A DNA stretch of 64,000 nt from assembly GCF_041886205.1 (NCBI RefSeq), contig NZ_CP169030.1; one strand, 5' to 3'. The position numbers were made by a program. This stretch comes from Escherichia coli (GTDB taxonomy: Bacteria; Pseudomonadota; Gammaproteobacteria; Enterobacterales; Enterobacteriaceae). This document shows positions 54,001-57,000 of the stretch, in pieces (position 1 is the stretch's first letter; every line of letters starts with the position of its first letter).

Positions 54001-57000
54001 ATAATCCCATTCATCAGGGTCTTTATCGCCGCCATAATCAAACAACAGATTAGTCACCATGGTGGTAACGCATTCCAGCAATACAGCCTCATGCGGGTTA
54101 ATGTCTGCATGAATTAATTCATCAAGATGTTGCCAGCGCTCCACTGTGTGCCAGTGCGCCGGGCGGCCTTGCCGATGATGTTCTATCCGTGCAGCCATCT
54201 CATCATCAAGGATTTGCGAGGTGGCGATATACAGAACCTGTGAAGAGTCCCCAATAAGCGCCTCTGCGTGGCGACTCTTCCCGCTCCGTGCGCCCCCCGT
54301 CACCAAAATCATCATACCGACTCCTGATTCAATTGTATGATGGTATTCATTGAACAGAACAATGGATCCCCCACCGTTGCTGACCGCAAAACATTTACGC
54401 GATTAATACTGCGCGTAATATAATTAAAAATCCAGCATTCTCAATCCATTACGAAAGAAGATGGCATTACGGAATAGCCAGACTTTCTCGTGTTAACGTC
54501 CGACAAAATGCGTCATTGACAGCGGTTTCTGTGGATTGACACATTTCATTCAGATAATGAATTAATGCTACTGCCGGACCAACCAGCAAACGGGCATTGT
54601 GTTCTGAAATCCAGGCTATTGACTCAACGTCAGCGACAGATCTGCGCTGTAAAAGAACTTGTAAAACAACGCAATAGAATTATCCGGAATGGTGGCGACT
54701 ATGCACTAGAACACCACAATTTCGCTCTCTCGGTAAGGCACTGTCACAGCATTCAACAGAATGTGACTTGCCAGATTTATTAGCGCCACCAGATGTTTAA
54801 CCGGGTAACCACGACCCAGTCGGGGATATATTCCATCTTCTCGCTGACATCATCAAGAATAAAAAGGTTTATCACACTCAGAGCAACGTTCTTCAGCAGG
54901 CGGGATAATTCTTCAACATTTAAAAGATGTGTTATTAAAGGCATACAAACTGGACGTATTGTATTTTCTTTTGGTGGTTGACCTAAGGTAGCAGTTTATC
55001 CTGATGCGCTGAGATTTCTGTAATATCTACGTCAACATTCTCCTCGAATAGAAAATGCAGCCCCGGCAAGTGATTCACATTTTTTAACAAAACGTTGTTA
55101 GCGTGCCATTTTCAGAAGCTCTCCAAGAAAGCGAATTCTTTTCTCAAATTCTGCATTCTCAGACACAGCTTTCTACTCCATGGCAATGGCCCAAATACGA
55201 AGTTGCTCAGGATCATTAGTGGTGCTGAGAAGTTAAATAACCATGCGGAGTACCACTCGTCATCACGTATTTATATATCATGAAGCTATTGTTGTGTTTT
55301 GTACATCAGTAGATGTATTCTGATATACTCCTTTTGCTAGACATAACCTTTCACCTGCTTGCAAAGCTTCTGTGTTCTGACATTGCCAAATTGTTGCAAT
55401 TCTGTATCCAGCCTTCTTTCAGTCATAGCTTCGGGCCGCGATAAGACTCACTGATCTGACCCTGATTCCTCTTGCAGACTTTATAGACCAATTAAAATGC
55501 AGTTTCTGCAGGTCAACGTCTGACCATCATTGTCATCACTCTGGCCATTAGAGTAACCTTCTGCATTCATCCTTTTGTAAAAAGTTTATGTCAGTATCAG
55601 CAATTAACCGGACCTGATACTGATTGATCTTACCCAGCAATAGTGGACACGCGGCTAAGTGAGTAAACTCTCAGTCAGAGGTGACTCACATGACAAAAAC
55701 AGTATCAACCAGTAAAAAACCCCGTAAACAGCATTCGCCTGAATTTCGCAGTGAAGCCCTGAAGCTTGCTGAACGCATCGGTGTTACTGCCGCAGCCCGT
55801 GAACTCAGCCTGTATGAATCACAGCTCTACAACTGGCGCAGTAAACAGCAAAATCAGCAGACGTCTTCTGAACGTGAACTGGAGATGTCTACCGAGATTG
55901 CACGTCTCAAACGCCAGCTGGCAGAACGGGATGAAGAGCTGGCTATCCTCCAAAAGGCCGCGACATACTTCGCGAAGCGCCTGAAATGAAGTATGTCTTT
56001 ATTGAAAAACATCAGGCTGAGTTCAGCATCAAAGCAATGTGCCGCGTGCTCCGGGTGGCCCGCAGCGGCTGGTATACGTGGTGTCAGCGGCGGACAAGGA
56101 TAAGCACGCGTCAGCAGTTCCGCCAACACTGCGACAGCGTTGTCCTCGCGGCTTTTACCCGGTCAAAACAGCGTTACGGTGCCCCACGCCTGACGGATGA
56201 ACTGCGTGCTCAGGGTTACCCCTTTAACGTAAAAACCGTGGCGGCAAGCCTGCGCCGTCAGGGACTGAGGGCAAAGGCCTCCCGGAAGTTCAGCCCGGTC
56301 AGCTACCGCGCACACGGCCTGCCTGTGTCAGAAAATCTGTTGGAGCAGGATTTTTACGCCAGTGGCCCGAACCAGAAGTGGGCAGGAGACATCACGTACT
56401 TACGTACAGATGAAGGCTGGCTGTATCTGGCAGTGGTCATTGACCTGTGGTCACGTGCCGTTATTGGCTGGTCAATGTCGCCACGCATGACGGCGCAACT
56501 GGCCTGCGATGCCCTGCAGATGGCGCTGTGGCGGCGTAAGAGGCCCCGGAACGTTATCGTTCACACGGACCGTGGAGGCCAGTACTGTTCAGCAGATTAT
56601 CAGGCGCAACTGAAGCGGCATAATCTGCGTGGAAGTATGAGCGCAAAAGGTTGCTGCTACGATAATGCCTGCGTGGAAAGCTTCTTTCATTCGCTGAAAG
56701 TGGAATGTATCCATGGAGAACACTTTATCAGCCGGGAAATAATGCGGGCAACGGTATTTAATTATATCGAATGTGATTACAATCGGTGGCGGCGGCACAG
56801 TTGGTGTGGCGGCCTCAGTCCGGAACAATTTGAAAACCAGAACCTCGCTTAGGCCTGTGTCCATATTACGTGGGTAGGATCATCAATGCTGTAGCCAATC
56901 AGCAGTCAGCTGAAAAAGCGGAAAATTTCATGTCAGCAGGCTATAAAAATTTTCTTGCTGAAGTCAACAACCTGAACAAACGTATGGGTGACCTGCGTGA

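Follow-up and report, generated by a model that had tools for sequence, protein, structure and literature searches.

The stretch between cobU and IS3

What occupies the AT-rich, seemingly gene-less DNA that separates cobU from an IS3 element on this Escherichia coli chromosome, and does any part of it still work? We analysed a window of 64,000 nucleotides (contig NZ_CP169030.1) and focused on positions 54316-55624, a stretch of 1309 bases whose left edge lies at the cobU start codon (cobU ends at 54315) and whose right edge lies at 55624, where homology with other E. coli ends and the left inverted repeat of the IS3 (TGATCTTACCCAGC) follows from 55625. A preliminary description, made by eye, had suggested a degraded remnant, or else a small RNA or regulatory element, at a position where other E. 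coli carry prophage-end genes. Our analysis indicates that the stretch is very probably a genomic scar and not a gene, composed of five decayed gene stubs (two from cbi genes of the vitamin B12 synthesis operon, now lost, and three from insertion sequences (ISs)) together with the promoter of the cobUST operon. Each part could be traced to a known gene that survives here as a truncated, frameshifted or stop-ridden relic, which bears out the degraded remnant, and no intact gene had been missed through misread frames, as the same description had allowed for. Read on the minus strand toward cobU, the order is an ISEc11-like 3' end, IS66 tnpB/tnpC, an IS4 piece, cbiG' and cbiP'; every internal junction is a truncation, no IS terminus is present, and none of the five pieces appears able to encode a working product. 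The relics are as follows.

55604-55624, minus strand: end of an ISEc11-like transposase gene (the end of K-12 yoeH), comprising the last 6 codons and the stop, cut by IS3
55363-55603, minus strand: ISEc11-like (IS1111-group) 3' non-coding region, without the terminal 12-nt subterminal inverted repeat
55278-55362, minus strand: IS66-family tnpB relic, the last ~27 codons and the stop
54801-55244, minus strand: IS66-family tnpC relic (K-12 yoeG), transposase codons 1-151
54619-54807, minus strand: internal fragment of an IS4-family transposase, amino acids 166-229 of 446 (64 codons); K-12 yeeH plus adjoining bases
54467-54610, minus strand: cbiG' relic, ~48 codons of the N-terminal domain of cobalt-precorrin-5A hydrolase, without a start
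54316-54469, minus strand: cbiP' relic, the final ~51 codons of the cobyric acid synthase gene in decayed form, which now hold the leader and promoter of cobU

The overall properties of the stretch match the first impression closely. Its coordinates were exact and its GC content is 41.4%, compared with 52.8% across the window and 52.3% in cobUST. The longest open reading frame (ORF) spans 72 codons (54565-54783, plus strand), close to the earlier ceiling of about 70, and 500 shuffles of the same bases gave an expected longest ORF of 74.9 +/- 19.4 codons; thus, the ORF content is at chance level. As to RNA genes, of which none had been recognised, ARAGORN found no tRNA in the stretch, and an Rfam scan at E <= 1 returned no family beyond a sub-threshold match to a eukaryotic small nucleolar RNA (20.4 bits where the gathering score is 37; E = 0.77), attributed to chance. 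Six-frame translations had no Pfam match and a single weak NCBIfam match, to the IS4 model NF033592, and promoter-like and terminator-like sites were no commoner than in shuffled sequence. Some part of the stretch is present in 5403 of 5426 complete E. coli genomes, and at least 80% of it lies in a single piece in 2935 of them, showing that this is real, conserved and ordinary E. coli chromosomal DNA. It is also already largely annotated as pseudogenes: in other strains the Prokaryotic Genome Annotation Pipeline (PGAP) marks two fragments, a 'cobalamin biosynthesis protein' and an 'IS4 family transposase', and in some genomes a 54-amino-acid hypothetical protein.

cbi relics and the cobUST promoter

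The part of the stretch next to cobU can be read against the pdu-pocR-cbi-cobUST supraoperon of Salmonella, Citrobacter and Klebsiella and the reduced form of that supraoperon in E. coli E2348/69 and E. whittamii, with which the window shares orthologous cobUST genes. Two features are needed here in addition to the relics listed above.

53770-54315, minus strand: cobU, the intact first gene of cobUST, a 181-amino-acid ORF annotated as cobU in matching E. coli records
54417-54444, minus strand: predicted sigma-70 promoter of cobUST, with TTGAGA (-35), a 16-nt spacer and TATATT (-10)

Going upstream from window cobU, the first DNA aligns with the 3' end of cbiP, and the piece after it corresponds to the N-terminal domain of CbiG. 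Unlike the supraoperon, the window lacks cbiA-cbiP, the B12 riboswitch, pocR and pdu, and retains only ~51 codons of cbiP and ~48 of cbiG, both decayed. The cbiP' DNA aligned with six enterobacterial cbiP 3' ends, from Citrobacter, Salmonella, Klebsiella, Raoultella and Enterobacter, at 57-61% nucleotide identity to intact cbiP and with a GC content of 39% as against 52-56%; blastn homology across the cbiP-cobU junction extended to 54346. No intact CbiP ORF of ~506 amino acids ends at the cobU start, where only the last ~51 codons align.

The fragment that PGAP labels 'cobalamin biosynthesis protein, missing N-terminus' was at first taken for cbiP; it proved to be cbiG', with the cbiP relic lying between it and cobU. 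cbiG' is 54% identical over 65 amino acids (E = 1e-18) to an ORF upstream of cobU in E. whittamii, which measures 144 amino acids from its ATG. Against the CbiG model NF004463 (351 positions, cutoff 546 bits), the 144-amino-acid ORFs scored 81 bits in Escherichia strain E69 (positions 1-126, E = 7e-23) and 72 bits in E. whittamii (positions 1-122, E = 5e-20), and the window's own fragment, which is too short, gave no match. Between Escherichia species, cbiP' is 83-86% and cbiG' 75-82% identical, so that both diverge at about the rate of third codon positions in cobU (78-81%).

Within the cbiP' relic lies what is most likely the one working element of the stretch. The sequence TTGAGA-16-TATATT matches the sigma-70 consensus at 10 of 12 positions, has a spacer within the 16-18 nt range and stands in front of a gene, ~100 nt upstream of the cobU ATG; it is the only good sigma-70 match facing cobU. 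The same hexamers appear as the cobUST constitutive promoter in a K-12 list obtained by genomic systematic evolution of ligands by exponential enrichment (SELEX) with RNA polymerase (PMC3946193), and the promoter sequence is 100% identical in E. coli E2348/69. It is probably active in this strain as well. Its hexamers align with the Citrobacter cbiP codons TTAGCA... and ...CCATTA, indicating that the promoter was made from dead coding sequence; it would have arisen by point changes in these cbiP codons and would now drive a salvage operon that has no riboswitch. The suggestion of a small RNA or regulatory element therefore holds as far as this promoter goes, and its RNA half finds a counterpart only in a decayed homologue of a seekRNA region, described below.

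Could the same DNA hold a further control element? The cobU leader RNA showed no unusual structure (z = +0.49 against shuffles), and no cobalamin riboswitch (RF00174) was found in window positions 54000-56000 at E <= 1. In E. coli lineages without the B12 riboswitch and pocR, positions 54316-54611 are the only cobUST control region left. Lawrence and Roth (1995) reportedly found that cobUST of E. coli K-12 is induced by cobinamide; if so, the ~300 bp of dead cbiP/cbiG DNA (54316-54611) could hold an undescribed corrinoid-responsive element that evolved within pseudogene sequence. We regard such control in the 300 bp next to cobU as unlikely.

Relics of IS4- and IS66-family elements

Beyond cbiG', the first IS piece is the IS4-family fragment, which PGAP annotates as a pseudogene. 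A protein-database search with it first gave only short E. coli 'hypothetical proteins' from the same locus; against the intact transposase of plasmid pO55, it is 72% identical in amino acids and 78% in nucleotides, with one stop and one codon deletion. Its match to NF033592 (E = 6e-4, 19 bits against a cutoff of 115) falls far short of a full-length DDE transposase.

The tnpC relic was identified by comparison with plasmid-borne copies. In a frameshift-aware alignment with the N-terminal ORF of TnpC in one plasmid copy (L006), 94 of 151 residues were identical, with 4 stops and 4 frameshifts, and the intact 527-amino-acid TnpC of plasmid pRHB23-C14_3 (L007) gave a tblastn match at E = 2e-23. 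A relative from the right sub-lineage was needed, because canonical IS66 TnpC proteins (ISEc23, IS682) gave no significant tblastn match. The homology ends at about amino acid 151-165 of 527, before the DDE catalytic domain, and no frame has a Pfam match. Just upstream, TnpB amino acids 107-126 matched the tnpB relic (tblastn E = 1e-4), and DNA homology with the tnpB of pRHB23-C14_3 extends to 55362 (GCAAGCAGGTGAAAGG versus GCAACAGGTGAAAGG). At the nucleotide level the IS66 relic is ~72% identical to IS66-family copies on 346 plasmids, and to the intact copy on pRHB23-C14_3, with which it shares the order and orientation of the tnpB 3' end, the spacer and the tnpC 5' end. In contrast to that copy, it lacks tnpA (no significant match), most of tnpB, the catalytic two-thirds of tnpC and the inverted repeats, so that no complete tnpA-tnpB-tnpC set is present. 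Neither IS66 terminal inverted repeats nor a target duplication were found; on either side the relic breaks off within the element and directly meets another relic.

One further feature lies across the tnpC relic.

54780-54944, minus strand: 54-codon ORF, entered as a 'hypothetical protein' (WP_001128468.1) in some RefSeq genomes (present in record L001, not in L002)

That entry, together with short 'hypothetical proteins' from the locus that protein databases hold for E. coli only, is what would favour a real small protein encoded here, whether by this ORF or by the 72-codon ORF on the plus strand (54565-54783). The ORF lengths, however, are those expected from shuffled bases, and the 54-codon ORF consists of two out-of-register TnpC pieces (PLITHLLNVE... 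and ...DDVSEKMEYIPDWVVVTR) and goes unannotated in other genomes with near-identical DNA; the database relatives all come from this one E. coli locus and carry no Pfam domain. We consider a genuine small protein extremely improbable: the 54-codon ORF is a chance ORF through the tnpC relic, no gene, and its RefSeq entry is an artefact.

A second promoter-like motif, TGTACA-17-CATGAT (55279-55307, minus strand), lies within the tnpB relic, a short way before the dead start of tnpC, and is listed as a 'yoeG promoter' in the genomic SELEX study (PMC3946193). RNA polymerase may bind there though no gene follows.

The ISEc11-like end and its decayed seekRNA homologue

The outermost relic derives from the 3' side of an IS1111-group (IS110 family) element. 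Over the whole length of the 3' non-coding region, its identity to ISEc11 and five relatives is 64-68%. Of the DEDD transposase gene of this group the window holds 6 codons and a stop. In other E. coli the final 56 codons survive, which are 49-50% identical to amino acids 282-337 of an intact 339-amino-acid IS110-family transposase and contain 2 stops. Neither of the subterminal repeats that mark the group is found, as the relic lacks both the right terminal repeat (ATGCGTTCATAT) and the left end. The junction between the ISEc11-like piece and tnpB falls within a microhomology of ~10 nt; together with the missing terminal repeat, this identifies it as a deletion junction and not an insertion. 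A true insertion of the ISEc11-like element into IS66 tnpB, with a decayed terminal repeat, was considered and rejected, as comparison with intact tnpB revealed the supposed repeat to be tnpB sequence.

In intact ISEc11, this 3' region encodes the seekRNA that guides insertion (PMC11187229), and the relic contains its counterpart.

55452-55515, minus strand: decayed homologue of the seekRNA scaffold, with outer stem, two guide loops and apical stem (columns 137-201 of alignment A1)

The ISEc11 loop sequences (CAGTATTTT and GTGAAAAT) match the target of ISEc11 itself, and those of an ISEc11-family relative in plasmid pRHB15-C23_2 (TCTGCTCT and CTGGGAGAAT) likewise match that relative's own target. 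For the relic, a search for an original target predicted from its guide loops found no convincing site. As a side observation, record L005 carries at 4331-5757 a 1427-bp ISEc11-family element cleanly inserted, without a duplication, in the tnpC of an IS66-family element; its loops, TCTGCTCT and CTGGGAGAAT, match its own insertion site and not the ISEc11 target GTGAAAATACTG, a natural example of retargeting.

Might the ISEc11-like 3' end still yield a functional seekRNA, acting in trans on active ISEc11-type transposases encoded elsewhere and with its target set by its own loops? The relic does align with ISEc11 along the whole seekRNA-encoding region, including stem, loops and stem of the scaffold, and 6 of 8 outer-stem pairs are kept, two of them by compensatory change. 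Its fold, by contrast, appears lost, being no better than that of shuffled sequences (z = +0.26, against -1.84 for ISEc11), and its identity to functional relatives is only 64-68%. Unlike ISEc11, it retains only 6 transposase codons and lacks the left end and the right terminal repeat, and the junction promoter that drives the RNA of intact elements therefore cannot form; IS3 now lies immediately upstream on that strand. Transcription of the seekRNA relic is unlikely, and a functional seekRNA has, in our judgement, next to no probability.

The island border and the IS3 boundary

In K-12, yeeH, yoeG and yoeH stand at the left border of the cryptic prophage CP4-44, in DNA 99% identical to that of the window, where they correspond to 54619-54705 (yeeH), 54712-55244 (yoeG) and a start at 55611 (yoeH). 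K-12 differs in having IS5H at CTAG (54706-54709) and 56 codons of yoeH; the window has no IS5, and its IS3 cuts yoeH 6 codons before the stop. No product is given for the three genes in the K-12 record examined. On the strength of the homologies above, we assign yeeH to an IS4-family transposase, yoeG to IS66-family tnpC and yoeH to an ISEc11-like transposase.

This border is the basis for supposing that a prophage or integrative island has its functional end here, with an attachment site or phage genes: K-12 annotation starts CP4-44 at the equivalent of window position ~54571, and island-type genes come next in other strains. Against this, no frame of the stretch matched a PHROGs family, the stretch holds no tRNA and no integrase, and the border falls inside the cbiG relic and is built of IS fragments joined by deletions. 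A collection of 50,697 phage records gave one match only, to GenBank MG065683.1 ('Campylobacter phage B14', 2504 bp), which is probably contaminated with E. coli K-12 host DNA. Its bases 1-284 are 99.6% identical to window 54706-54989, a match that begins exactly at the K-12 IS5H junction. A functional prophage or island end is thus very unlikely. The 'prophage end' of the preliminary description is right in name, in that the CP4-44 left border is drawn here, yet it is a border drawn by K-12 annotators and not phage content, as the pieces are IS and cbi relics.

The right boundary of the stretch is formed by an IS element.

55625-56882, plus strand: IS3, with orfA and orfB ORFs and inverted repeats

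This IS3 is flanked by different triplets (GAT to its left, TCA to its right) instead of a 3-bp target duplication, and the junction between it and the stretch was found in none of the 5426 complete E. coli genomes; together, these observations point to an IS3-mediated rearrangement, an inversion or deletion, specific to this strain. An apparent 10-nt overlap of the relic with the IS3 end was dismissed as an alignment artefact. Beyond IS3, a truncated autotransporter beta-domain ORF occupies 56870-57802, and the same IS3-autotransporter order occurs elsewhere in several Shiga-toxin-producing strains.

Comparative layouts and a proposed history

Related genomes retain what the window has lost. 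E. coli E2348/69, a phylogroup B2 strain, carries in order the pdu operon, pduF, pocR, an annotated cobalamin riboswitch, a 145-amino-acid cbiG' ORF and cobUST, and the same layout is found in E. whittamii and Escherichia strain E69, where the riboswitch (RF00174) scores 109-111 bits. E. coli genomes of this riboswitch type match the stretch over 54316-54611 only, at 92-93% identity; 843 records fall in the band of 90-95% identity, and this pattern of matching is seen in all nine sampled rows that cover 54316-54611 at 92-93%. In Escherichia sp. E1V33, cobU and cbiG' are followed directly by an IS fragment and yeeX-yeeA-sbmC-dacD, without island or IS mosaic. These layouts together indicate that, in the window's lineage, the mosaic and the island behind it took the place of pdu, pocR, the riboswitch and cbiG' in its 5' part. 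By the same comparison, the cbiG'-cbiP' fusion appears older than the mosaic and common to the genus.

Three side observations concern these genomes. An intact 144-145-amino-acid ORF for the CbiG N-terminal domain alone lies between the riboswitch and cobUST in E2348/69 (locus at 7134-7964 of record L089) and in E. whittamii and E69 (loci at 5039-5866 of L011 and 5050-5877 of L009). It is thus open in three lineages, and the truncated window copy has diverged unusually far from that of E2348/69, at 92.6% identity with a 9-nt deletion, between flanks of 98-99%; the CbiG stub may be under selection where intact. In the two pdu-keeping Escherichia species records, Rfam places the Salmonella-type small RNA STnc230 between pduF and pocR (L009, 3903-3986; L011, 3889-3972). 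Finally, in E. coli ET650 the cob relic ends at window ~54503, where a PduV fragment adjoins it (L090, 5182-5358), and yeeX (tmaR)-yeeA-sbmC-dacD follows directly, which indicates an independent deletion of the pdu operon.

From the homologies, truncations, junctions and layouts, we infer the following order of events. Ancestral Escherichia would have carried at this site the pdu operon, pduF, pocR, the B12 riboswitch, cbi genes and cobUST. When E. coli and E. whittamii last shared an ancestor, all that was left of the cbi block would already have been a cbiG' stub joined to the final ~51 cbiP codons. Later, in the window's lineage, everything upstream of cbiG codon ~95 would have given way to a decayed CP4-44-type island end, made of three truncated pieces (IS4-family, IS66-family and ISEc11-like) joined by deletions rather than transposition. 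The loss of de novo B12 synthesis in E. coli, with cobUST kept, is established, and was reportedly described by Lawrence and Roth (1995 and 1996).

Base composition and points to the contrary

Why is the stretch AT-rich? Each relic lies 4-16 GC points below its intact homologue. In unpolarised counts, sites with A/T in the relic and G/C in the intact homologue outnumber the reverse by ~3:1 in the IS66, IS4 and cbiP relics (91:28, 27:8, 31:13 and 36:11), and the excess is weaker in the ISEc11-like 3' end (48:28 and 50:36), and in cbiG' (18:10), as against 58:37 in the live control cobU. AT-biased mutation on unconstrained DNA is expected to give such an excess. From this general expectation, the low GC content would be a by-product of long neutral decay under AT-biased mutation.

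Several points weigh against reading the whole stretch as a scar with no function beyond its promoter. The nearest intact IS relatives are 22-36% divergent, and much of the difference may be divergence within the families, not decay at this site. The match to cbiP at the protein level is weak by itself (Raoultella CbiP amino acids 471-495 against 54468-54394, tblastn E = 0.03, 2 stops), and the assignment leans on the DNA alignment. cbiP', unlike cbiG', is also slightly better conserved than the third positions of cobU, which fits a putative constraint on promoter or leader and is not proof of it. Judged by sequence, the stretch may also still give rise to transcripts or small proteins.

Meaning of the locus

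The practical gain is in annotation: K-12 yeeH, yoeG and yoeH acquire identities, and a 54-amino-acid RefSeq 'hypothetical protein' is flagged as an artefact. Beyond that, the stretch matters little, and serves as a worked example of how a chromosome keeps traces of a large operon it has lost and of mobile elements that have decayed. For E. coli itself, the comparison shows that cobUST is riboswitch-controlled in some strains (for example, E2348/69) and not in the lineage of the window.

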